Positions 9,131-49,279 of a stretch of DNA of 64,000 nt are shown piece by piece. The notes under the pieces were generated by a model. It did not search any database, was not told the origin of the DNA, and saw only the letters and a program-made list of their open reading frames with translations. A program made the position numbers and the translations under genes. Numbering within the stretch: the first letter of the stretch is position 1; the number at the start of each line of letters is the position of its first letter. Where the stretch lies: the NCBI RefSeq assembly GCF_050920415.1, contig NZ_CP169309.1; one strand, given 5' to 3'. The stretch is from Escherichia coli (lineage in GTDB: Bacteria; Pseudomonadota; Gammaproteobacteria; Enterobacterales; Enterobacteriaceae).

Positions 9131-9180
9131 TTGACACTGTTTATTCATACAGTAAAAAATAGTGCTGTATACAAATACAG
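9131..9180 (+). promoter_or_regulatory. SOS-regulated promoter with two tandem LexA boxes
   Basis: TTGACA at 9131-9136. CTGTttattcatACAG (9137-9152) fills the spacer, and CTGTatacaaatACAG (9165-9180) lies just downstream. Both fit CTG-N10-CAG. RBS agaggga at 9184-9190. Confidence 0.75.
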
Positions 9181-9195
9181 TATAGAGGGATTTTT

Positions 9196-9444
9196 ATGCG
9201 TATTGAGATCTGCATAGCCAAAGAGAAAATGACTAAAATGCCAAGCGGTGCTGTTGATGCGTTAAAGGAAGAATTAACTCGGCGCATCAGTAAGCGTTAT
9301 GACGATGTAGAAGTAATCGTAAAAGCCACCAGCAATGACGGGCTTTCTGTTACACGCACCGCAGATAAGGATTCTGCAAAAACATTTGTTCAGGAGACTC
9401 TGAAAGATACTTGGGAGTCTGCTGACGAGTGGTTTGTTCACTAA
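9196..9444 (+). CDS. DinI-family protein
   Basis: 82 aa: [31 protein letters not shown]...[16 protein letters not shown]. It aligns by eye with E. coli DinI (MRIEVTIAK...LQETWESADDWFVSE). Confidence 0.8.
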
Positions 9445-10355: not shown

Positions 10356-12446
10356 TTACTCAATGCGTACAAAAAGACCGATATAGCCACGCGTTGTATC
10401 GTGACTAATGCGGGTCCCCGAAAGCGCCGTGTAACGACCGGGGAAGTTGTATTCACCAGCACCGCCAATCACAACCTGCGGTGAGGATGCGTATGTCCCT
10501 GTATCGCTAACCCGTGCACTCATAGCCAGAGGGCCAAGACGGGAACCCGGCACAATATCACCGAGCCCCAGAGACGCATCTGCACCAAAACTCTCCCCCT
10601 GATATGCCGCCATAATCGGCACACCAACGGCCGGGTATTTATAATATGAGCCTGAGCCCGCCATCCTGGACAGCAGGTACGCCAGTGAATCTCCGTCGTA
10701 TACAACTACCCGCGATGACATGTTCCAGCTGTTATCGCTGTCGTTGTACCGGTACTGCATATAGTGAATACAGTGTTCACCCTGATAATACTGGTTGTAG
10801 CACATCAGGGTTTTAAATTTGCGGACTGTGTCGGATTCACTGTTGGCGTACGGTGACCACATCACATCAATAATGCCGTTAAATTGCGTGGTACCGGTAA
10901 GCAGTTGCGAGGAGTCTGTAATACTGACCGCATACCGCCCCGGCGTGACTTTCTTCAACCACTCAACGAAATCAGACAGCCCCTCAAACGCCAGAGCGTC
11001 AGTGCTGGTGAATGCCTGTCCAAACCCATACATCCCGGACAGGGCCAGCCTGCCCGGTGTGCGGTCACGGATATCACTCTGGGGTTCCATCGTCGCAGCC
11101 GCGTTCAGCTCAAGCTCCGTGCGCATGGCTTCAGCCGTGTCATGCGCCAGTAATGCGCGGCCCTTCTCTGACAGCAGAGACAGTGAGGCATTCCCGTCTG
11201 TATTGAAGTACAGAAGATTATCTGCCCGTTGCGTCAGTGCGCTGATTGCCGTTAAGACGTCATTAAGCGGTTGTTTGCCTGCCAGCGCGTTTGTGATTGT
11301 CGTCGCAAAGTTCGGGTCATTGCCCAGCGCCGCAGCCAGTTCGTTCAGGGTGTCCAGAACTTCCGGTGACGAATCAACCAGCGCAGCAAGCAGTTTGCGC
11401 ACAAACGCCGCGTTCGCTGCTTCCAGACCGGCGGCATCATCCTGTGGGGTTGGGGTGGTTGGGGTGCCGGTGAAGGCCGGGCTGTCCAGTGGCGCTTTTG
11501 TTTTCGTCTCCTCCATGACGGTTTTGACAGCCTTTGGCGTGGCAGCCAGTTCCTCGCTGTCGTTATCCGTGTCACTACAGAGTTGCACCAGACCTTTTTC
11601 TGTCGTGGAGGCATTTGTTGCATTCAGGTCATCAACTATCTGCTGCGTCTCATCCCTGTACTGTTTCGCTTCCTGCGCATTGTCTGCACCTGCATCCTGG
11701 CTGGCTTTAGCCTGTCGGGCGTATTCGGCGGCACTGTTTTTGTGCCCCAGCGCCGCATTTGCCGACAGTTCTGAACTGGTCGCTGCTGATGATGCGGCAT
11801 TATGATAAAGGCGGGCGCGTTCGGCGGCATCGACTGATTCGTCCCGCGCTGTGCCTGATGACTGTGCGCTGTTTTCTGCCTCACCCGCAAAACGTTCCGC
11901 ATCATCACGGGCCGTTGCGGTTGTCGTCACATCCTGTGCCGTCTGCTGTGCGTTTCCGGCTGCAGCTTCGGCGCTCTGCTGTGTCTGATTTTTTAGCTCT
12001 TCTGCCTCATCCTTACTAACCGCCGCAGATGTTGCTGCATTGATTGCATCATCAGCAGCTGTTTCTGCTCTCTCCCTGTCACTGACCACCTGCTCAGACA
12101 AGCGAACAACGGTATTTACCATTTCCTCAAAACGCTTCATTACCTCAGGGCGTAAATCACCCTCCTTTGGTGCATCCAGAAAAGCATTCAGCGTATCCGG
12201 CTCATCTGTCGGTGCAACATAAATTTCCCCCGCCTTTACAGGAGGATGCCCTGAGCGGGACAAAAATACATCATAAAATCCCGGCTCAGCATTAATAGTA
12301 TACCCGCCATCACTTCCCGTAAGACAGGTTGCCACAATATTAACCACAACTGTCGGACTGGTTCTTCTGGCTCGCAATTCAATCGCACAGTTTACGACAG
12401 GCTCACCTGCTCCGTCCTTCAGGACACCTGAAATCTTTACTGCCAT
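10356..12446 (-). CDS. stf: side tail fibre protein
   Basis: From ATG 12446: MAVKISGVLKDGAGEPVVNC..., as in lambda Stf. It has an Ala/Ser/Glu-rich coiled region and the conserved ...KGLVQLCSDTDNDSEELAATPKAVK... and LNELAAALGNDPNFATT segments. Confidence 0.9.
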   Translation of the reverse strand: MAVKISGVLKDGAGEPVVNCAIELRARRTSPTVVVNIVATCLTGSDGGYTINAEPGFYDVFLSRSGHPPVKAGEIYVAPTDEPDTLNAFLDAPKEGDLRPEVMKRFEEMVNTVVRLSEQVVSDRERAETAADDAINAATSAAVSKDEAEELKNQTQQSAEAAAGNAQQTAQDVTTTATARDDAERFAGEAENSAQSSGTARDESVDAAERARLYHNAASSAATSSELSANAALGHKNSAAEYARQAKASQDAGADNAQEAKQYRDETQQIVDDLNATNASTTEKGLVQLCSDTDNDSEELAATPKAVKTVMEETKTKAPLDSPAFTGTPTTPTPQDDAAGLEAANAAFVRKLLAALVDSSPEVLDTLNELAAALGNDPNFATTITNALAGKQPLNDVLTAISALTQRADNLLYFNTDGNASLSLLSEKGRALLAHDTAEAMRTELELNAAATMEPQSDIRDRTPGRLALSGMYGFGQAFTSTDALAFEGLSDFVEWLKKVTPGRYAVSITDSSQLLTGTTQFNGIIDVMWSPYANSESDTVRKFKTLMCYNQYYQGEHCIHYMQYRYNDSDNSWNMSSRVVVYDGDSLAYLLSRMAGSGSYYKYPAVGVPIMAAYQGESFGADASLGLGDIVPGSRLGPLAMSARVSDTGTYASSPQVVIGGAGEYNFPGRYTALSGTRISHDTTRGYIGLFVRIE

Positions 12447-19440: not shown

Positions 19441-21947
19441 CGCCCGCTCCCTGATAACATACCGCCATCACGTAACTGCAGCCGGAGCTCATCCTGCGCC
19501 CCCTTACGGGCCATGTCATACACCGCTTTCATCAGCTGCGGCCCCGCCTGTCCGTTGATACCGTCGTTCTGAATCACCACGTGATTGTTCTGATTAAAAT
19601 TAATGCCTTCCACCCGCCGCATCTGCGCCGGACTTCCGGCACCACCCACATAACCACCTTCCGCATAGCCATGCATCAGGCGGTACAGGTTGCCGACGCC
19701 AATCCGGCTGGTCGCCTCCTTCGTGAAGACAAACTCCCCGCGGTGAACAATCCCCGCAGGCTCGTATTTGCCGCCAGTACCTGTAAAACCACCACCGGCA
19801 AACCCAATGGCACTACCGATACTCCCGACAATCCCCACCATTGCCTGCTTAAGCAGAATTTCTGTCATCATGGACAGCACGGAGCGGGTGAAGCTGCGCC
19901 AGTTCTGTTCACTGCCGGTCAGCATCGCCGCCATATTCTGCGCAATACCATCAAAGGTCTGCGTGGCCGCGCTTTTAACCTGCGAAAAACTGTCCATGGC
20001 ACTTTCCGCCCACTCACCCCAGCCGGATTTCAGCCCGACCATCCAGCTTCCACGAAGCTGCTCCTCCGCAGACCAGGTGTTCTTCAGTGCAGATGTGGCC
20101 TTCGCCAGCGCATCCGGATTATCACCGTACACGTCACGAAGGCGCTGCTCTTCCGACTCCCGCTGCGCCTGACGGTCGGTGAGGCCGCGGGCTTTTGCGC
20201 TGATGGCGGCCTGCTTCGCGCTCTGCTGCTGTTCAAACCGCGCCGCCTGCTGTGCCAGCTCATTCAGCCGTTTCTGGTGTTCAACCTTGTCGCCCAGGTC
20301 AGCCAGCTGGCGTTTGTACTCCAGCGTCTCTTTCTCATGGGCCAGCAGCGATTTTTCCTGCCCGGATAACTGCCGTTTCGTGGCGGCCTCTTTCAGGACC
20401 GCATACTGATTTTCCGCTTTCCATAAATCACGGCGCTGCTGGCTGATTTTCTCATTCGCACCGGCATGCTTCTCCAGCGTCCTGAGCTCAGTTTCAAGCG
20501 CCAGCATGGCTGCATGCGCCCGGTCTTCCTGACGCTCCCCGGCTGACACTTTGACACCTGACGACTTCGGTTTTTTCAGCGTCGATTCATAATCCTTTTT
20601 CGCCGCCGCCATCAGCGTGTTGTAATCCGCCTGCAGGATTTTCCCGTCTTTCAGGGCATTATTCAGCTCTTCCTGCCGGTCAGTATATTTCTCCAGTGGC
20701 GTCAGCAGGCGCTCATACGCCTTCTGCGCCTCTCCGGTATACTTCAGCTGTGACGCCTCACGCTCAGCCCGGTCCCTTGCCACCAGTTCACCGGCTTTTT
20801 CCATATCCGACTGCAGCGTGGCTGCCGCCAGCCCCAGACGGGCATTTTCACGGTCATCCCATGCACCCTGAAGGTTGGCACGGAAAGAGGAGGTCTTTCC
20901 CCGGCGCTGACTCCGGCTCTGGTACCACTGCCATTTTTTATCCGCCTCATCAAATGCCTTCTGCGCACTGGCGAGCATATCCGCTGAGGATTCAGGACGA
21001 CCGATATCCAGGATGGCATCCCACATCAATTTGAATGCCTTCCCGGTTTTATCCGCCCAGGTTTCCAGCGTCCCCATGTTTTCTTTCAGGCGACGGGTCT
21101 GCTCATCAAAGCCTTTTGTGGCGATATCGTTCGCCGCCTGTAAGGCCCCTGCCTCATCACCCGAACGCTGCAGCTGCGTAACATACGCAATCTGCTCTGC
21201 CGTCACGTTACGGAACTGGCGCGCCATAGCCATCAGTCCCGACGTCGGGTCGGTGGTCAGCTTTCCAAAAGCCTCTGCAACCTTGTCCACTTCCACACCG
21301 GATGCAGAAGCAAAACGCGCCACACTCTGGTTGATGGCATCAAACTGTTCACCACCACGCACACCGGCATTCACCAGGGCTGCCAGTGACTCACTCGCCT
21401 GGTTAAACGTCAGCCCTGCTGCCTGTCCGGCTCTGGAGAGCGTCAGCATGCGAGCGGCAGTCAGTCCGGACTGATTACCGGAAAGAACCAGGGTTTTATT
21501 AAACGCTGAAAGCATGGAATCCCCCTGGTACCAGGCATACGCCAGCGCACCTGTCGCCACCGCCAGCGAGGTGACCCCGACCATCGGCAGGGTGATCGCA
21601 CCGGCAAGCCCCCTGAACATGGGGAGCATCCCGCCGAAGGCGTCCTTCACCTGACCGCCCTGTTGCAGCAGAATAAGCCAGGGATTCTGACCACCGGCAA
21701 GCTGCGTGGCGATATCCGTAAACTGTGCAGGCAGGGTACGCATGGCCGCTTTATACTGCCCGACGGAAATCCCGGCTTTTTGTGCAGCCAGCGCCTGACG
21801 GCTCAGGCCCTGTTCAACAGCACTGGCGGTTTTTCTGGCGTCGGTATCCAGTCCTGAAAAATGACGCCTTACCCGGCTTATCTGCTCATCGAAACGGACC
21901 GCATCCAGACTCAGGTCAATAACAAGATCACCAACCGGCTGGGACAT
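19437..21947 (-). CDS. H: tail tape measure protein H
   Basis: 836 aa, long and alpha-helical/Gln-Ala-rich, in the lambda H position. Confidence 0.9.
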   Translation of the reverse strand: MSQPVGDLVIDLSLDAVRFDEQISRVRRHFSGLDTDARKTASAVEQGLSRQALAAQKAGISVGQYKAAMRTLPAQFTDIATQLAGGQNPWLILLQQGGQVKDAFGGMLPMFRGLAGAITLPMVGVTSLAVATGALAYAWYQGDSMLSAFNKTLVLSGNQSGLTAARMLTLSRAGQAAGLTFNQASESLAALVNAGVRGGEQFDAINQSVARFASASGVEVDKVAEAFGKLTTDPTSGLMAMARQFRNVTAEQIAYVTQLQRSGDEAGALQAANDIATKGFDEQTRRLKENMGTLETWADKTGKAFKLMWDAILDIGRPESSADMLASAQKAFDEADKKWQWYQSRSQRRGKTSSFRANLQGAWDDRENARLGLAAATLQSDMEKAGELVARDRAEREASQLKYTGEAQKAYERLLTPLEKYTDRQEELNNALKDGKILQADYNTLMAAAKKDYESTLKKPKSSGVKVSAGERQEDRAHAAMLALETELRTLEKHAGANEKISQQRRDLWKAENQYAVLKEAATKRQLSGQEKSLLAHEKETLEYKRQLADLGDKVEHQKRLNELAQQAARFEQQQSAKQAAISAKARGLTDRQAQRESEEQRLRDVYGDNPDALAKATSALKNTWSAEEQLRGSWMVGLKSGWGEWAESAMDSFSQVKSAATQTFDGIAQNMAAMLTGSEQNWRSFTRSVLSMMTEILLKQAMVGIVGSIGSAIGFAGGGFTGTGGKYEPAGIVHRGEFVFTKEATSRIGVGNLYRLMHGYAEGGYVGGAGSPAQMRRVEGINFNQNNHVVIQNDGINGQAGPQLMKAVYDMARKGAQDELRLQLRDGGMLSGSGR

Positions 21948-33034: not shown

Positions 33035-33063
33035 CTGCTGTGCTCCAACACAGCAGTTTTTTT
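33035..33063 (+). terminator. plus-strand intrinsic terminator
   Basis: ctgctgtg/cacagcag stem followed by T7. Confidence 0.65.
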
Positions 33064-38582: not shown

Positions 38583-39641
38583 TCATCCGTTCTGACTGAC
38601 TAAATCCTGAACTTCCTTGACCGTCTGCTCAAAACGCTCAGTCTCCAGCTCAACGCCAATTGCACGACGTCCCAGCGCCATCGATGCTTTGACCGTCGAA
38701 CCCGACCCCATGAAAAAATCTGCAACCAGATCTCCCGGACGACTGCTTGCGCTGATTATCTGCTGCAACATTTCTGCCGGTTTTTCGCACGGATGTTTCC
38801 CGGGATAGTACTGCACCGGTTTATGCATCCACACATCGGTGTACGGCACCTGCACAGTCACACCGAAATACCGCCGCAAATTTTTATATTCTCTCAGCAG
38901 TTCCGTATACTGCCGGTTCAGTTCACTGTATGTGCTGACCAGCTGGTGGTGTGGCTGCTCCAGTTCACCGCGCTGATGTTTTTCTGCTGCAACACGCGCA
39001 AACAACGCCTGCAATTTGTTGTAATCAGCTTCGTTCGGTAACTGCCACTGACTGGTACCAAACCAGTGCGAAGCCATGTTTTTCTTTCCGGTGGCTTCCG
39101 CTATCTGTTTTGACGTTATTCCCAGTTCGGCACGAGCATCCCTGAAATACGATATCAGCGGTGCCATTATGTGCTGTTTGAGTTCCCTTTCTTTTGCCGC
39201 ATAGCCGTCACTTTTGCCGCGATATGGCCCCTGGTAATGTTCAGCAAACAGAACGCGCTCTGTGGCAGGAAAATATGCGCGCAGACTTTCTTTATTACAC
39301 CCATTCCAACGTCCGGACGGCTTCGCCCAGATGATATGGTTAAGCACGTTGAAACGTTCACGCATCATGATCTCAATATCAGATGCCAGGCGATGCCCAC
39401 AGAACAGGTAAAGGCTTCCGGCAGGTTTCAACACCCGCCAGAACTGGGCCAGACAGTGGTCCAGCCACTTAAGATAATCTTCGTCCCCTTTCCACTGATT
39501 GTCCCAACCGTTGGGTTTCACCTTGAAGTAAGGCGGATCGGTAACAATCAGGTCAATGGAATCATCAGGCAGGGACTGAATAAAATGCAGGCAATCAGCG
39601 TTGATTAAATCAACACTGTTTATTTTTACAGTATTTTTCAT
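38583..39641 (-). CDS. DNA methyltransferase (N6A/N4C, DPPY type), orphan
   Basis: 352 aa with IVTDPPYF (motif IV) near the N-terminus and FFMGSGST (motif I, SAM binding) near the C-terminus. No adjacent nuclease gene. Confidence 0.85.
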   Translation of the reverse strand: MKNTVKINSVDLINADCLHFIQSLPDDSIDLIVTDPPYFKVKPNGWDNQWKGDEDYLKWLDHCLAQFWRVLKPAGSLYLFCGHRLASDIEIMMRERFNVLNHIIWAKPSGRWNGCNKESLRAYFPATERVLFAEHYQGPYRGKSDGYAAKERELKQHIMAPLISYFRDARAELGITSKQIAEATGKKNMASHWFGTSQWQLPNEADYNKLQALFARVAAEKHQRGELEQPHHQLVSTYSELNRQYTELLREYKNLRRYFGVTVQVPYTDVWMHKPVQYYPGKHPCEKPAEMLQQIISASSRPGDLVADFFMGSGSTVKASMALGRRAIGVELETERFEQTVKEVQDLVSQNG

Positions 39642-41179: not shown

Positions 41180-42169
41180 TCAGGCCAGAACGCCAATTGC
41201 CAGCGCACGATCGATAAAACGAAATATCAGCTCCAGCTGGGAGCCATACTTCTCTTCAAATGCCACGGTATCCGCATGCAGCTCGTCGTGATGCTTTCTG
41301 CACAAAGGCAACACAAAAAGGTCATGCGCTTTTGTTCCCATTCCACCCTGACCGTGACCTATCAGGTGGTGGGGATCATCAGCAGGCTTTCCACAACATG
41401 CACACGGCTGTGTCTTAACCCAGCGCGTGTACTTTTCATTAACCCAGCGGCGACGTTTGGGGCGTAACATAAAAGACTCCGGCGACTCCGGATCCACTTT
41501 CAGCGCCAGCACCTTTTTCGCTTTATCCTGGATGATGCTGGTGGCAGGAACCGAAGGCACAAGGTCACACTCCCGGGTGACAGACGGCACAACAGGCGTC
41601 GGTAATCTCAGTGCCTTACGGGCTGCACTTTCCGGTAAGGCATCCGCCAGGTCATTACGAGCCAGCCACCAGCACAGTTCCGGCATTGTCACAACGTGAC
41701 TATCATCAAAACCGAGATCCCGACGCACGACAGATAACACCCACCGGGCACAGTTATCCGTTGCCATTGATTCCAGCCGTTCCGTGAACTGATCGCGCAG
41801 CTGGTTATCGCAGTGCCAGCACAGACGGATTGCGCCCGGAGCGTGTCGCATTGTGGTCATATTCTCGCTGTGCCAGTCGGAATGAGGCCACTGGCAGCCT
41901 TTTTCACGAAGTAACCAGCTTTCAAGACATTCCACGCCACCAGCACGACGGATTACCGCCTCATTGCGGAACATAGCCCGAACGGCAGGATCATCCGCCA
42001 GCGGTTGTGATGCCGCCGGAACGGCACCACTGGCAAAAGATGAATAACGTTCCGGCTCAGGCTCCAGCAGGACACGCCCCTGCATAAACAGGGGCATCAG
42101 CTCTGAACCGGGTCTGAACAATACGATCCCCATACGTGGGGCAATTTCAGGGGTCAGTAGTGCTCTCAA
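41180..42169 (-). CDS. DUF968-family protein (YdfU-like) with C-terminal HNH-like motif
   Basis: 329 aa. C-terminus: ...[52 protein letters not shown] start at 42169; an ATG alternative lies at 42133. Confidence 0.7.
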
Positions 42170-42709: not shown

Positions 42710-43525
42710 TCAGTGAACGGTATCGAGCAGCTTTAACAGCTCAGGGAATCGGGATTCGAAGAAATGCGGCTGCGTCTCGCGCGGATTTGCAGGACTGGTG
42801 ATGTTCTTGCCGAACATGCAGCCTTTCGCCGTCAGCGACCAGAATTTTTTGATGTTGTTAATCGCGGTACGGCTGTATCGTTCGCGTTGTTCAACGATCC
42901 CCAGCTTCGCCATCTGGTGATATGCCTGATTAGCCGTCAGGCGGATACCATACTGCTTCAGCAGTGCACTCAGCGACAGCGTAGGGCGGCTTGAACCATC
43001 TGGCGCATCAGCAGGTGCATCAATGGCATAGATCGGCATAAGTTCAGGAAGACCTGCTACCTTTGATAATTTCTGGTATGCACCAAGTTTCGAGGAGTTT
43101 GACAGATTTAGAGTCTTTGCTGCTGATTCAAGCAGAATGACCCCGGATTTAATTTTGTCGGATGTGGTTTCTTCTGGTGATGAATTATGAAGCGCATCAA
43201 AAGTACGTATCACTTTTAAGCTGAATGCCGGGCTGATCCACATTGCATATGCATAGACCAGCTCTTTACAGACATACGTCCCACCATTGCGCCCCTGAAT
43301 GGTGATGACAGGAATACTACGGGAATCTCCCGTAGTTTCTTCTTCCAGTAATTCCACAAGAGCCTTCGTTTCAGGACGACGCATAAACTCGTGAACTTCC
43401 AGCGAACGGGAGGAGCGATTCTCACCAGCGGCAAGAAGAGCAGCTTTCTGAAGGTCGTTAAGACAGTAGTTAGATTCAAAGTACTGGCGCACAGAAACGC
43501 CATCAATTACAAGCAACTGATTCAT
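42710..43525 (-). CDS. KilA-N domain / antirepressor-type protein
   Basis: 271 aa from ATG 43525 (RBS ggagaa): MNQLLVIDGVSVRQYFESNYCLNDLQKAA...GGTYVCKELVYAYAMWISPAFSLKVIRTFD (KilA-N), with an ANT-like C-terminal half. Confidence 0.7.
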   Translation of the reverse strand: MNQLLVIDGVSVRQYFESNYCLNDLQKAALLAAGENRSSRSLEVHEFMRRPETKALVELLEEETTGDSRSIPVITIQGRNGGTYVCKELVYAYAMWISPAFSLKVIRTFDALHNSSPEETTSDKIKSGVILLESAAKTLNLSNSSKLGAYQKLSKVAGLPELMPIYAIDAPADAPDGSSRPTLSLSALLKQYGIRLTANQAYHQMAKLGIVEQRERYSRTAINNIKKFWSLTAKGCMFGKNITSPANPRETQPHFFESRFPELLKLLDTVH

Positions 43526-43613
43526 TGGTTTCTCCACAAATTTCGGGACTGCACTCCCTTTTCGTTGATGCAAGATGAACTTACTGCGATTTTTAATAGT
43601 TATCAAGGATACA

Positions 43614-43629
43614 CTGTTCATAAATACAG
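43614..43629. promoter_or_regulatory. LexA (SOS) box in the rusA / KilA-N spacer
   Basis: aCTGTtcataaatACAGta fits the CTG-N10-CAG consensus with TA-rich centre. It lies 89 nt upstream of the antirepressor ATG, in the only large gap of the early-right operon. Confidence 0.6.
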
Positions 43630-43676
43630 TACCTTTAACGAGGTAATACCCAAATTTAGGGTGTTGCTCAATTCCG

Positions 43677-44072
43677 TTACCGAGTTGCTAATTTGCAACT
43701 CGCTTTTTCGTACTTACTGATAGTGATCTCGACCTTACCTTCCGGGATAACCGGTCCCCACTCCACCAGCATTCTTTTCACCTGACTGTCGTCTTCCCAC
43801 ACCCCCGCGTGGGTCAGGGCGTCAAACAGCGCCTTGTTATAGTTGTCCAGATCGCGGATCCGGTTATCCGGAGGAAACAACACGATCTCCACTGAAGCAG
43901 GTGCCGACGTTGGTTTCGGCAGACGACGTAACTGCTCAACTATTGCTGCGCACGCCGCGCTCTGGAATTTTCGCCCCGCCGCGCTTATCAGGCTCTTACC
44001 AGCAAACGCCCCTTTGTTGGGGTGTCGCCAGTACGTGTTCACGCTGGGCGGGAAAGGCAGTATTAGCTTCAT
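43677..44072 (-). CDS. rusA: Holliday junction resolvase RusA
   Basis: 131 aa: LPFPPSVNTYWRH...RIRDLDNYNKALFDALTHAGVWEDDSQV (RusA catalytic Asp motifs). Confidence 0.85.
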   Translation of the reverse strand: MKLILPFPPSVNTYWRHPNKGAFAGKSLISAAGRKFQSAACAAIVEQLRRLPKPTSAPASVEIVLFPPDNRIRDLDNYNKALFDALTHAGVWEDDSQVKRMLVEWGPVIPEGKVEITISKYEKASCKLATR

Positions 44073-44395
44073 ACTTTCAGGCCCCTCTCATGTAACCAGT
44101 GGGTTGCACGCAGCCTGGCGTTTTCCTCACCGGCAAGCAGTGAGCGGATAATCCCGACCGCCTCGCTGTCGTCGTCCTTCATCGCAGTATGAAGCGTTAT
44201 CCCCCGGGCCACGCCACGCTTTATCGTGATGACGCCTTTTTTCTCCAGTGCGCGAAGATGCTCCACCGCTGCATTCACTGAACGGTATCCCAGCATGGTT
44301 GCCACCTCCTGATTGGTTGGCGGGAAGCCACGTTCTTTCTGATAAGAAATCAGCATATCCAGCACCTGCTGCTGGCATTGAGTTAACGTCGTCAT
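44069..44395 (-). CDS. LexA N-terminal DNA-binding-domain paralogue lacking the S24 peptidase domain
   Basis: 108 aa. Residues 1-66 align with E. coli LexA 1-66 at 35 identical positions by my hand alignment, including the recognition helix (SVNAAVEHLRAL vs SPNAAEEHLKAL). There is no Ala-Gly site and no Ser/Lys dyad. Confidence 0.75.
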   Translation of the reverse strand: MTTLTQCQQQVLDMLISYQKERGFPPTNQEVATMLGYRSVNAAVEHLRALEKKGVITIKRGVARGITLHTAMKDDDSEAVGIIRSLLAGEENARLRATHWLHERGLKV

Positions 44396-45044
44396 GCCGC
44401 CATCTCCCTGACCAGTTTTTCCGCCTGCTGGCGAACCTGCGCCAGAAACGCCTCACCACATGCCTCAAGTTCATCGCGCCCGATGTAGCTGATTGCCGGT
44501 CCCTTCCAGGTCTGTCGAAAACAGCAATAGCACCAGCGAAGAAAGCGCCTGTCGGCACCTGCTTCTCATCTTTCGGGATAAACCAGGCAGGCAGTTCAAA
44601 ACCAATACGCCCGCGAATAAAAGCAATATGATCTGCATCTTCCGGCCACCACACTTCGCTGGTGGCAGCTTTGATCAGGAAAACATAGCGCCCGCCTTTA
44701 TCACGCATGGCACTGGCATGTTTCATGATGTAACGCATGCCGGTGATGTATTGCCCCTCATGCTGACTGGCGCGGCTGTATGGGGGATTACCAAAGGCAG
44801 CACCTTTAAGCTCCGCAAGACGTTCTGACCAGTCATGCGCCAGCGCGTTGTCTTCCGCCGTGTAATACGCGGTACATTTGGCGTTATCACCGTCAGTAAA
44901 CAGATCCAGGACAAACGGGCCAAACAGGGTGTTAATTCCCCAGAAAATGTTACCCGGCGTGCGCCACTGATCGCCCACTTCCTTCAGTTCATGGGCTGGT
45001 TTGTTCCGCAGTTCCACCAGCGCCCGGCAATATTTATTACTCAT
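44392..45044 (-). pseudogene. phage Dam-type N6-adenine methyltransferase (YfdM-like), apparent 1-nt frameshift near 44513
   Basis: From ATG 45044: MSNKYCRALVELRNKPAHELKEVGDQWRTPGNIFWG...FGNPPYS...GAIAVFD. The sensible continuation QTWKGPAISYIGRDELEACGEAFLAQVRQQAEKLVREMAA* is in another frame and ends in an ATGA overlap with the next gene. The in-frame read-through to 44127 is junk that overlaps two genes. Confidence 0.65.
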
Positions 45045-45532
45045 TAAGCCCCCACGTAATTCCCTGACAGATACCACTCTTCACCCGATGCAGCGCGCTT
45101 GCTACTTTTCCGTAAGCACCGCTCACGACGCGCCAGAAAATTGTTTCGTTCTGGCAGGGAGTGGCTTTCACGGAATGCCGCCATCCACACGGTTGCAGCA
45201 CGACGAAATAAGCCCCTGGACTCCAGTTCTTCCGCCTGGCGGGTCAGGCACAAAATCACCCGTGGATCGTTAGTGCCGACATAGAAATTGCGCACAGGTC
45301 TGGTTTCACGAACTGGTTGTGGTTCCGGCTCCTGCGCTCTCTCAGTCAGGCGTGGGAAATGTCTGCGTGTATCTCCTTCACAACGGTGAGCCACACGCCC
45401 ACTCTGACGTAACTTGCTTGCTGACTGCAGAACGCGCTGTCGTGAGTAACCAGCAAAAGCATCCGCAATGTCTCCGGAAGTACACCCCGGATGGGCTTCA
45501 ATGAATTTCTGAACTTCATTCAAAAGACTCAT
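45044..45532 (-). CDS. YfdN-like protein with PerC/ANR-like C-terminal motif
   Basis: 162 aa. QAEELESRGLFRRAATVWMAAF resembles the PerC/ANR regulator signature. It occupies the position after the O-like gene, as in CPS-53 (from memory). Confidence 0.5.
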   Translation of the reverse strand: MSLLNEVQKFIEAHPGCTSGDIADAFAGYSRQRVLQSASKLRQSGRVAHRCEGDTRRHFPRLTERAQEPEPQPVRETRPVRNFYVGTNDPRVILCLTRQAEELESRGLFRRAATVWMAAFRESHSLPERNNFLARRERCLRKSSKRAASGEEWYLSGNYVGA

Positions 45533-46574: not shown

Positions 46575-47722
46575 TTGCGCCCCCTTACCTCGGAAGAGTT
46601 CAGCGACGAATGAATAAGACGGGCAAGAAATGCCGCATCGTTAATTCGGTCATACAGACTTACAGCCAGCGGTGATTCAGCTTTTTCCAGCATGGGATAA
46701 AGCTGCTGCAACCAGACCTGATGAATTGATGAAATGTAGGAATAGAGTACGCTGGCGTTATGTGCAACGTCGCTCGGTACAGCGGGCTTTGAAAGCTGTT
46801 TCTCCATCTGGTTAAAGGCATTGATGTATGCCTCTTTGAACTGGGCAGCACGTTTACCCGTGAAACCCATAGCAAGAAACGCAAAACCGTCGCGGGTTAT
46901 TTGATAGCAAGGTAGTTTGCGGCCTGTGCAATCGGTGTAATCACTCACCGAAAAATTGCGGGCAGTGAATGATGCGGAGCATTCAAGCGTGCGGATCTTT
47001 TTCAGTACATCGTCATGACGTTTGGAGAAGAAGTTGGCAACAGCCAGGGATGAAGTAACAGCCTGACCATCAACGATGGCAATTTCAGGTTGAGTGAGGG
47101 TTGGGATCGTAGCCATGATGGCAGCCTCTTTGGTGATTTTTAATAACTCACCACCAAGGCTTTCCACGACCTTATTGGTGGTGAGACGTACAGGGGTGGA
47201 AATACCGGTCACCAAAGAACCCGGCCCAACCGAAGTTGGCCCTGCACGCCCCACCATAATTTGGGCGTAATGCTGCTCATGACACAAAAAAACCGCAAGA
47301 GCGCGGTTGTGCGCTTTGGTGAATTCCGGGTTTCCACGCCCGGCACCCGCTTTATAAGGTGCCTGAACAGTGTAACGTCCCGGAATGGCAGAATCAATGT
47401 GCTGGTGGTCCTTCACACTCAACAAAATCACGCCTGAATTTCCACAAAGGGCTAAAGCACTCATGCGGGTAGTCTTTGCGAAGATAGATAACGCGCTGTG
47501 TTTCTGGCTCCCAACGAATAACATGAACATAAAGTCCTCTTCCGTCACGAAACCAGCGGTTAAGTTCCTGCACAACTCGCCCCCCACAGTCAGGTAAAGT
47601 TCTCTGTGGTTACTTACAGCCAGGAGATTTGGTAATCTGCATTCATGCCGTAACAACAGGTGTTCAGCGACGCTGACCACCAGCTGTTGCGACAAATGGT
47701 TATTTGCCGTTAAACTGTTCAT
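46571..47722 (-). CDS. Rha-family phage regulatory protein with an unrecognised 193-aa N-terminal extension
   Basis: The C-terminal half from MATIPTLTQPEIAIVDGQAVTSSLAVANFFSKRHDDVLKKIRTLE... (internal ATG 47143, RBS agagg) is a typical Rha N-terminus. The same frame is open upstream to ATG 47722, which overlaps the previous stop. Confidence 0.6.
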   Translation of the reverse strand: MNSLTANNHLSQQLVVSVAEHLLLRHECRLPNLLAVSNHRELYLTVGGELCRNLTAGFVTEEDFMFMLFVGSQKHSALSIFAKTTRMSALALCGNSGVILLSVKDHQHIDSAIPGRYTVQAPYKAGAGRGNPEFTKAHNRALAVFLCHEQHYAQIMVGRAGPTSVGPGSLVTGISTPVRLTTNKVVESLGGELLKITKEAAIMATIPTLTQPEIAIVDGQAVTSSLAVANFFSKRHDDVLKKIRTLECSASFTARNFSVSDYTDCTGRKLPCYQITRDGFAFLAMGFTGKRAAQFKEAYINAFNQMEKQLSKPAVPSDVAHNASVLYSYISSIHQVWLQQLYPMLEKAESPLAVSLYDRINDAAFLARLIHSSLNSSEVRGRK

Positions 47723-48604: not shown

Positions 48605-49279
48605 ATGAAAACAGTCCATGACATCCGGCGGTCTAACGCCAGAAAACTGAGAGATGGTGTTGGCGGGAATTCTTCCTTTGCCACCATGATTGATCGCGAA
48701 CCAACCCAGACCAGCAGGTTTATGGGAGATGGTGCTACTAAAAATATCGGTGACAGCATGGCACGGCACATCGAAAAATGTTTCGACCTGCCTGTCGGAT
48801 GGCTTGATCAAGAACACCAGACAACGAACATCACAAAAAAACCTGATGTTTCAATCACTAATAAACAAATAACGTTAGTCCCTGTCATATCATGGGTACA
48901 GGCCGGAGCATGGAAAGAAGTTGGCTATTCTGAGGTTGATTTGAGCACAACAGAAACATATCCCTGCCCTGTACCCTGTGGCGAAATGACTTATATATTG
49001 AGGGTGATTGGTGATTCAATGATTGATGAGTACCGTCCGGGGGACATGATTTTTGTCGATCCAGAAGTACCAGCCTGCCACGGCGATGACGTTATTGCAT
49101 TGATGCACGATACAGGTGAAACCACCTTCAAAAGGTTGATAGAAGACGGGACACAGCGTTATCTCAAAGCATTAAACCCCAACTGGCCTGAGCCTTACAT
49201 TAAGATAAACGGTAATTGCTCTATCATTGGTACAGTTATTTTCTCAGGAAAACCAAGAAGATACAAAATTAAAGCCTGA
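48605..49279 (+). CDS. cI: CI-type repressor (HTH + S24 LexA-like autopeptidase)
   Basis: 224 aa with an N-terminal HTH. The C-terminal S24 domain has an AG site (WVQAGAW), a GDSM Ser and TFKRL Lys. Confidence 0.85.
   Translation: MKTVHDIRRSNARKLRDGVGGNSSFATMIDREPTQTSRFMGDGATKNIGDSMARHIEKCFDLPVGWLDQEHQTTNITKKPDVSITNKQITLVPVISWVQAGAWKEVGYSEVDLSTTETYPCPVPCGEMTYILRVIGDSMIDEYRPGDMIFVDPEVPACHGDDVIALMHDTGETTFKRLIEDGTQRYLKALNPNWPEPYIKINGNCSIIGTVIFSGKPRRYKIKA

Follow-up and report, generated by a model that had tools for sequence, protein, structure and literature searches.

The window analysed here, 64,000 nucleotides of Escherichia coli DNA (contig NZ_CP169309.1 of assembly GCF_050920415.1), contains a lambdoid prophage whose early-right operon includes a gene (44069-44395, minus strand, ATG start) for a LexA-like protein of 108 amino acids, WP_000210144.1, which the Prokaryotic Genome Annotation Pipeline (PGAP) names 'LexA repressor'. 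In this protein the DNA-binding half of LexA is present and the S24 autoprotease/dimerisation domain is replaced by a helical hairpin. We propose, tentatively and with a confidence that stops just short of even, that it is a delayed-early repressor of SOS boxes, immune to activated RecA (RecA*) and aimed mainly at the SOS genes of the host. Sequence and structure comparisons support its description as a LexA DNA-binding-domain paralogue that lacks the S24 domain with Ser119 and Lys156, its predicted immunity to RecA* is well founded and its occupation of SOS boxes is plausible; we infer the dimerisation via the tail, the binding to SOS boxes and the repression.

DNA-binding domain, helical tail and spread of the family

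A sequence-only reading of this DNA had described the product as a prophage-encoded LexA DNA-binding-domain paralogue, and this description holds. The Pfam family LexA_DNA_bind (PF01726) spans residues 1-65 with E = 2.9e-19 and 69 bits (cut-off 23.7), BLASTP finds 39 of 90 residues identical to E. coli LexA (E = 9e-22), and in the Protein Data Bank (PDB) the sequence is matched best by 1lea, the DNA-binding domain from LexA (E = 6.7e-16), and by full-length LexA. The 35 identities with LexA residues 1-66 that had been counted by hand are essentially right, the formal ungapped count being 34 of 66.

An AlphaFold model of the monomer, built from 18 family sequences (a shallow alignment) and with a mean predicted local distance difference test score (pLDDT) of 78.5, folds codons 1-68 (44192-44395, minus strand) into a winged helix-turn-helix with helices at residues 6-22 and 28-35, the recognition helix at 40-52 and wing strands at 56-59 and 65-68; residues 69-74 form a low-confidence linker to the tail. 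The best Foldseek match of the model is the LexA-DNA complex 3jso, with a root-mean-square deviation of 1.5 Å over 67 residues, and 1lea is also matched structurally by the modelled DNA-binding domain. The residues with which LexA contacts DNA are Ser39, Asn41, Ala42, Glu44 and Glu45 (PMC3091678). Four of these five (S39, N41, A42 and E45) are kept in the prophage protein and E44 is replaced by V; at position 38 it has the R of E. coli LexA, and the recognition helix, NAAVEHLRALEKKG, matches that of LexA at 10 of 14 residues.

The tail, which had been taken to be unrelated sequence, turned out otherwise. Codons 75-108 (44072-44173, minus strand) are predicted to form a hairpin of two helices (residues 75-87 and 93-102), both modelled at pLDDT 86-88. 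Eleven positions in the tail are hydrophobic in at least 75% of the sequences, one stripe per predicted helix. A97 and L101 stay the same in every subfamily, despite an identity of only 38-48% between subfamilies, and the pattern is common to the proteins P0122, P0124-P0126, P0132 and others. The DNA-binding domain has a ratio of non-synonymous to synonymous substitution rates (dN/dS) of 0.196 and the tail one of 0.194, calculated over 72 distinct genes of the mEp390-type subfamily. By model and sequence comparison the tail thus is a conserved amphipathic, predicted two-helix hairpin under purifying selection. A search of the tail profile against PDB sequences and of the tail sequence against Pfam gave no match beyond chance, and PADLOC returned nothing meaningful. 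The hairpin is presumed to be a surface for dimerisation or for binding of a partner; because the conserved hydrophobic positions are too many for exposure to solvent, it probably dimerises as a four-helix bundle and so probably supplies the dimerisation for which LexA uses its C-terminal interface.

The resemblance to LexA is already catalogued in phage and genome records. The protein is a plain member of PHROG 362, which it matches from end to end (E = 1.1e-59, residues 1-108 aligned to positions 1-106 of 106) and whose name, 'transcriptional repressor', is an annotation by homology; in E. coli genomes the gene goes under 'LexA repressor', 'LexA family protein' and 'LexA family transcriptional regulator'. 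With at least 95% identity it is present in 2232 of 5426 complete E. coli genomes (about 41%). Carriers among phages are SfV (orf42), SfII, SfIV, cdtI, mEp460 (mEp460_046, 'LexA DNA binding domain protein'), 1720a-02, Stx2a_1447 (Stx2a_1447_18), Stx2a_WGPS2 and many Stx2c phages; the homologues in SfV, mEp460, cdtI, Stx2a_1447 and the Stx2c phages are 95-100% identical to the one in the window and share its context between dam and rusA. An exhaustive profile search retrieved full-length relatives of about 104-135 amino acids at 38-48% identity from Cronobacter, Kosakonia, Enterobacter, Cedecea, Klebsiella and Salmonella, and the family does not extend beyond Enterobacterales phages and prophages. 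Hosts of this order share the LexA box CTGT-N8-ACAG. Some proteins of 141-350 amino acids (P0128, P0129, P0138, P0140 and others) contain a tandem pair of LexA_DNA_bind stretches.

The missing protease domain and the Ala-Gly dipeptide

The chain ends at residue 108, and a Pfam scan of the protein gave no match to Peptidase_S24. The lexA equivalog model TIGR00498 scores 70.6 bits, below its cut-off of 110.95, with only model positions 1-91 of 203 matched; the absence of a Ser/Lys S24 domain, seen in the sequence-only reading, is therewith confirmed. LexA residues 75-202 suffice for RecA*-mediated cleavage, for which the Ser119-Lys156 dyad is required (PMC9926225). Since this part of LexA carries the cleavage reaction and the S24 domain is absent, the prophage protein should be unable to cleave itself, and the immunity to RecA*-stimulated autocleavage that had been proposed for it is, judged from its sequence, well founded.

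It had also been stated that the protein has no Ala-Gly site. This is not so: codons 88-89 (44129-44134, minus strand) encode Ala-Gly, which BLASTP and HMMER align with A84-G85 of LexA. In BLASTP, HMMER and TIGR00498 the alignment runs through the linker, 'VGIIRSLLAGE' being paired with 'VGRVAAGE', and by continuing to the Ala-Gly it makes the protein resemble a LexA truncated just past its cleavage site. In close homologues G89 is replaced by N or K, most distant subfamilies are without the dipeptide, and in the model A88-G89 lies in the predicted turn between the two tail helices, not in a strand-loop-strand. The dipeptide is probably vestigial. A real cleavage site at A88-G89 was considered and rejected as the principal interpretation, the dipeptide being unconserved and the region predicted to be helical.

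Operon, neighbouring genes and SOS boxes

Positions 30000-54999 of the window are 100% identical to positions 4449831-4474830 of NZ_CP169399.1 from E. coli MFDS1022581, the PGAP annotation of which was used. The prophage extends from the dinI-like gene next to prfC (about 9.1 kb) to an integrase gene beside yjjG (about 55-56 kb). Its repressor is of the ymfK-type CI (helix-turn-helix plus S24; 48605-49279, plus strand, annotated by PGAP on the identical sequence), and the early-right operon is released from the immunity region that this repressor defines. On the minus strand this operon encodes, in order, ymfT/ymfL, Rha, an O-like helix-turn-helix replication protein, a PerC-like protein, Dam, the LexA-like protein and RusA, followed by a KilA-N protein, a protein of 171 amino acids of unknown function, a DUF968/HNH protein and the antiterminator Q, which serves the late genes.

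The gene, which appears in the list of open reading frames (ORFs) and is identified by PF01726, PHROG 362 and the annotation, is preceded by the Shine-Dalgarno sequence GGGAGA and shares 4-nucleotide ATGA start/stop overlaps with both neighbours. Its start overlaps the normal stop of the gene for the phage N6-adenine methyltransferase Dam (44392-45077, minus strand; PF05869, E = 6.9e-42), and its stop overlaps the ATG of rusA, encoding the Holliday-junction resolvase (43677-44072, minus strand; PF05866, E = 6.4e-15). A consensus scan of 43400-45200 found no sigma-70-like promoter, neither for this gene nor for the SOS box that begins at 43612; by eye, a weak TTGAGC-17-TATTAC was seen upstream of that box. 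From the missing promoter it follows that the gene is a delayed-early gene of the nin region, in agreement with the early-right position first assigned to it.

The gene next to rusA (42710-43525, minus strand; PF04383, E = 1.6e-15; PHROG 129 and PGAP) encodes a KilA-N domain protein, a putative antirepressor or regulator, and further downstream lies the gene for the DUF968/HNH-nuclease-like protein (41180-42169, minus strand; PF06147, E = 4.2e-80; HNHc_6, E = 4.3e-6; PHROG 96). The DUF968 protein shows a sub-threshold likeness to the family of the RecA-dependent nuclease Ref of phage P1 (E = 0.11). Compared with that of mEp460, dam of the window has a 1-nucleotide deletion near codon 177 and is labelled 'frameshifted' by PGAP; the resulting ORF (44127-45077) passes the start of the LexA-like gene out of frame and runs through two thirds of it. 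PGAP flags the portal and lysis genes and one hypothetical gene as frameshifted as well; possible reasons are a defective prophage or indel errors in the assembly.

For the comparisons with other carriers it has to be kept in mind that the loci are related to one another and not phylogenetically independent. A rusA homologue lies directly downstream of the LexA-like gene in all 79 mEp390-type and P0125-type loci with enough downstream sequence and in the majority of those of Cronobacter type. It also follows the gene in the more distant loci of the P0132 type; in most others of this type an ORF of 67 amino acids takes its place. This conserved ORF (MKKSWFLHEQLSESQALELAERYRKK...), which has no Pfam match, replaces rusA in phages of the Cedecea/Enterobacter type (L257-L283 and L290) and shows the same 4-nucleotide overlap with the P0132-type gene in all of them except L290. 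The block formed by the LexA-like gene, rusA, the DUF968/HNH gene and Q is common to SfV-type and mEp390-type phages.

SOS boxes were scored with a rough position weight matrix built from E. coli operators, and site statistics were obtained with mononucleotide shuffles. Four strong boxes were found, all above 21 bits and each above the median of the operators used for the matrix. Three of them had been recognised in the sequence-only reading and are confirmed: CACTGTTCATAAATACAGTA (43612-43631, 21.8 bits), which is located between the stop of rusA and the KilA-N gene about 90 nucleotides upstream of the annotated KilA-N start (43525), and the two boxes at 9135-9154 and 9163-9182 (23.9 and 24.4 bits) upstream of the dinI-like gene (9196-9444, plus strand; 'DinI-like family protein' in PGAP) that adjoins prfC at the end of the prophage. 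The fourth, which had been missed, is CACTGTTTATTTTTACAGTA (39614-39633, 22.6 bits) over the first codons of a late-region DNA methyltransferase coding sequence (38583-39641, minus strand).

Two of these locations call for a remark. With its tandem boxes the dinI-like gene gives the prophage a second SOS-modulating function. In NZ_CP169399.1 the dinI boxes are found 66 nucleotides to the left of their place in the window, and a single base differs in one of them, which means that the window is not identical to NZ_CP169399.1 in that part. The box at the methylase covers roughly the first 27 nucleotides of the coding sequence and recurs in about 30 of 80 carrier loci; mEp460 (2078-2097 of the locus) and Stx2a_1447 (1603-1622 of the locus) have a box at the same position. 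Either the start has been annotated wrongly or the gene has its start covered by bound LexA.

In the prophage CTGT-N8-ACAG occurs 8 times, 0.6 occurrences being expected, and when spacings of 0-20 between CTGT and ACAG half-sites were scanned only N8 was enriched. Four further occurrences (11198-11213, 19862-19877, 33038-33053 and 47604-47619) have GC-richer spacers and lie inside structural genes or the Rha gene. A scan of spacings 0-16 in the mEp390-type and Cronobacter-type loci gave five excesses at spacings other than N8. Four of these could be located, all within coding sequence; the recurrent matches in mEp390-type loci correspond to conserved coding positions, one of them within the LexA-like gene itself. 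The excess of ACAG-N3-CTGT in Cronobacter-type loci is the one without an assigned location.

Recurrent SOS-box modules near the gene are found at three places, the cI linker, the gap between rusA and the KilA-N gene, and the methylase start. One KilA-N allele carries the box at 43612-43631, which is seen in PhiR49_1 and in no more than about 14 of the 80 carrier loci that are nearly identical; mEp460 and Stx2a_1447, in which rusA and the KilA-N gene are separated by about 20 nucleotides, are without it. Within 6 kb no box of at least 18 bits was found in 31 of the 80 near-identical (window-type) loci, and such a box was found in 8 of 80 mEp390-type, 7 of 56 Cronobacter-type and 30 of 34 P0132-type loci. 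Because many carrier loci are without nearby boxes, host SOS boxes are the only class of targets common to all carriers. Of the two options offered in the sequence-only reading, editing of the host SOS response and gating of SOS-box promoters of the phage itself, the comparison of carriers favours the first and weakens the second.

The module in the cI linker is a near-perfect SOS box (TACTGTATATAAAAACAGTA or TACTGTATGTAAAAACAGTA) inside the cI gene, in the part that encodes SNTVYKNSTG between the helix-turn-helix and S24 domains. It is located at 11129-11148 in both the Stx2a_1447 and the mEp460 locus, lies at nucleotide 164 of the cI match in L085-L164, occurs in 80 of 80 loci with that cI allele and is absent from the ymfK-type immunity region of the window. 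Within cI the box could act as a LexA roadblock or as an SOS-controlled internal promoter for a fragment consisting only of the C-terminal domain. This cI allele is accompanied by the LexA-like gene in 48 of 54 loci; the co-occurrence was considered as support for a functional connection and rejected as such, the loci being 97-100% identical relatives and the two features only 3-5 kb apart, so that linkage explains it.

Proposed function, alternatives and significance

According to our proposal transcription of the gene would follow induction or infection and occur only as part of the early-right (nin) operon; by translational coupling to dam and rusA the protein would be made together with RusA. 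The hairpin would provide the dimerisation that LexA draws from its C-terminal domain, and the dimer would bind to CTGT-N8-ACAG boxes, from which RecA* could not remove it, both the Ser/Lys active site and the RecA*-docking domain being absent. The LexA regulon would thus be held off or repressed again during lytic growth, at a time when the LexA of the host undergoes cleavage. It would be directed mainly at SOS genes of the host, to which phage promoters with SOS boxes would be added where these are present, here those of the KilA-N, methylase and dinI-like genes. The isolated N-terminal fragment of LexA still binds operators weakly and in cells is degraded by ClpXP, so that a version that is stable and dimeric ought to repress strongly. 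As to the benefit for the phage one can only speculate that SOS-induced membrane toxins, colicins and LexA-controlled antirepressors of rival prophages would be silenced, and that the co-translated RusA would compensate for the repression of ruvAB.

Counterparts in expected phenotype are the non-inducible LexA mutants (lexA3/Ind-, G85D, S119A), in which SOS boxes stay occupied despite RecA*. The same phenotype would be expected for the prophage protein. The mutants, however, are full-length LexA with point mutations, whereas the prophage protein is without the whole catalytic domain and its dimerisation must come from another module; the structures 1jhf and 1jhh are among its structure and sequence matches. 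With E. coli LexA itself (TIGR00498; 1jhh, 3jso) it has in common the winged helix-turn-helix, its fold and four contact residues, as well as the weak similarity through the linker to the Ala-Gly. It differs in having the conserved helical hairpin in place of the S24 protease/dimerisation domain and in that its gene is carried by a phage within a nin operon and has no SOS box of its own through which it would be autoregulated.

From phages one protein of this type has been characterised, gp6 of the Bacillus thuringiensis tectivirus GIL01, a truncated, uncleavable homologue of LexA that is encoded by an early gene expressed after SOS induction; it binds to GaCACA-N-TGTGaC, with K38 as the key residue, and activates the late promoter (PMC6182141). 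Both gp6 and the prophage protein are phage-encoded and consist of a LexA DNA-binding domain without a protease domain, and the enterobacterial family extends the type of truncated phage LexA homologue known from GIL01. Compared by description, gp6 is extended by only 14 residues, which complete the wing, and is without the helical tail of the prophage protein; where gp6 has K38, the prophage protein has R38 together with the LexA-like S39, N41, A42 and E45, and the phage of gp6 is a tectivirus of a Gram-positive host.

Several points weigh against our proposal. The only characterised phage protein with nothing but a LexA DNA-binding domain, gp6, recognises a site that is not a LexA site and is an activator (PMC6182141). 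R28 of LexA is N in the 108-residue protein, and some subfamilies have E45 changed to G, D, L, I or V, so that, with E44V, a drift in specificity is possible. Another spacing of the half-sites could result from dimerisation through a different module, and most mEp390-type and Cronobacter-type carriers are without an SOS box within 5-6 kb of the gene. In the window the dam frameshift, by sending ribosomes through the start of the LexA-like gene, may lower its expression. Finally, neither an experimental study of the enterobacterial family nor binding or expression data for it turned up when the literature was searched in full text.

In the first alternative the protein is a regulator like gp6 with diverged specificity, an activator or repressor at a phage-specific operator instead of SOS boxes. 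Besides the gp6 precedent, the sole one for a truncated phage LexA homologue, it would account for the fast evolution of the family, down to 38-48% identity within one bacterial order, for the variation at position 44 and in some subfamilies at 45, and for the lack of nearby boxes in most mEp390-type carriers; the new tail could have altered the half-site geometry. It is opposed by the four unchanged LexA contacts and the conserved recognition helix, by the exclusive enrichment of the N8 spacing in the prophage and by the finding that those recurrent matches at other spacings that could be located (four of the five excesses) are confined to coding sequence. A late activator would also be unneeded in a phage whose late genes are served by Q. 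We consider this alternative unlikely, with enough in its favour to be taken seriously.

In the second alternative the protein is not a transcription factor. It would be an accessory DNA-binding partner of RusA, possibly also of the DUF968 HNH nuclease, that targets or regulates the resolution of junctions. The constant neighbourhood of rusA with its ATGA overlap in the mEp390-type and P0125-type loci and in most of the Cronobacter-type, although the subfamilies are only about 45% identical, speaks for such a role, as does the DUF968/HNH gene that comes next in SfV-type and mEp390-type phages, and a protein partner could be bound by the conserved hydrophobic tail. A structure-specific cofactor, however, would have no need of base-specific LexA contacts, most P0132-type members have the 67-amino-acid ORF instead of rusA, and rusA is present in many phages without the LexA-like gene, such as DLP12 and phage 82. 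Since overlapping genes are hard to part by mosaic recombination, linkage alone can explain the synteny, and we regard a partnership with RusA as quite improbable.

Still less probable is a decoy function, in which the LexA-like 'VG..LLAGE' would dock in the active-site cleft of host LexA or of an S24 phage repressor, or be cleaved in trans, and thereby alter the kinetics of LexA or CI cleavage. The alignment with LexA that reaches the Ala-Gly by three methods would fit; the LexA C-terminal domain has been reported to cleave LexA fragments in an intermolecular reaction, and the prophage repressor YmfK is an S24 protein. Against it stand the lack of conservation of the Ala-Gly (AN or AK in close homologues, absent in most distant subfamilies) and the confident prediction of helices in the region (pLDDT 86-88), and a decoy gives no reason for the conservation of the DNA-contact residues. 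That the protein is the functionless, decaying remnant of a captured lexA can hardly be believed, for although its architecture resembles a truncation just after the cleavage site and many frameshifted or fused variants are in the databases and several genes of the prophage are frameshifted, dN/dS is about 0.19 in both halves in the mEp390-type subfamily, the length is constant at 104-112 amino acids, the tail is conserved across subfamilies and copies of at least 95% identity are carried by the 2232 E. coli genomes mentioned above.

The repressor of host SOS genes may finally be put in its boldest form, which we hold to be possible and on the doubtful side: a RecA*-proof mimic of LexA with a hitherto undescribed hairpin that would switch off the host SOS response during lytic growth, silencing toxins, mutagenic polymerases, colicins and the antirepressors of rival prophages, while RusA and the HNH nuclease would replace the host recombination functions thus repressed.

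The gene is annotated in thousands of genomes and apparently unstudied, and its product is small and looks soluble. In E. coli the SOS response controls prophage induction, the release of Shiga toxin, mutagenesis and persistence. If the proposal is true, E. coli would very commonly carry a phage-made, RecA*-proof brake on this response, and the protein would be a natural scaffold of a non-cleavable LexA. Such a brake could change how Stx2a and Stx2c prophages and other co-resident prophages respond to antibiotics, and it could explain differences in SOS output from strain to strain.

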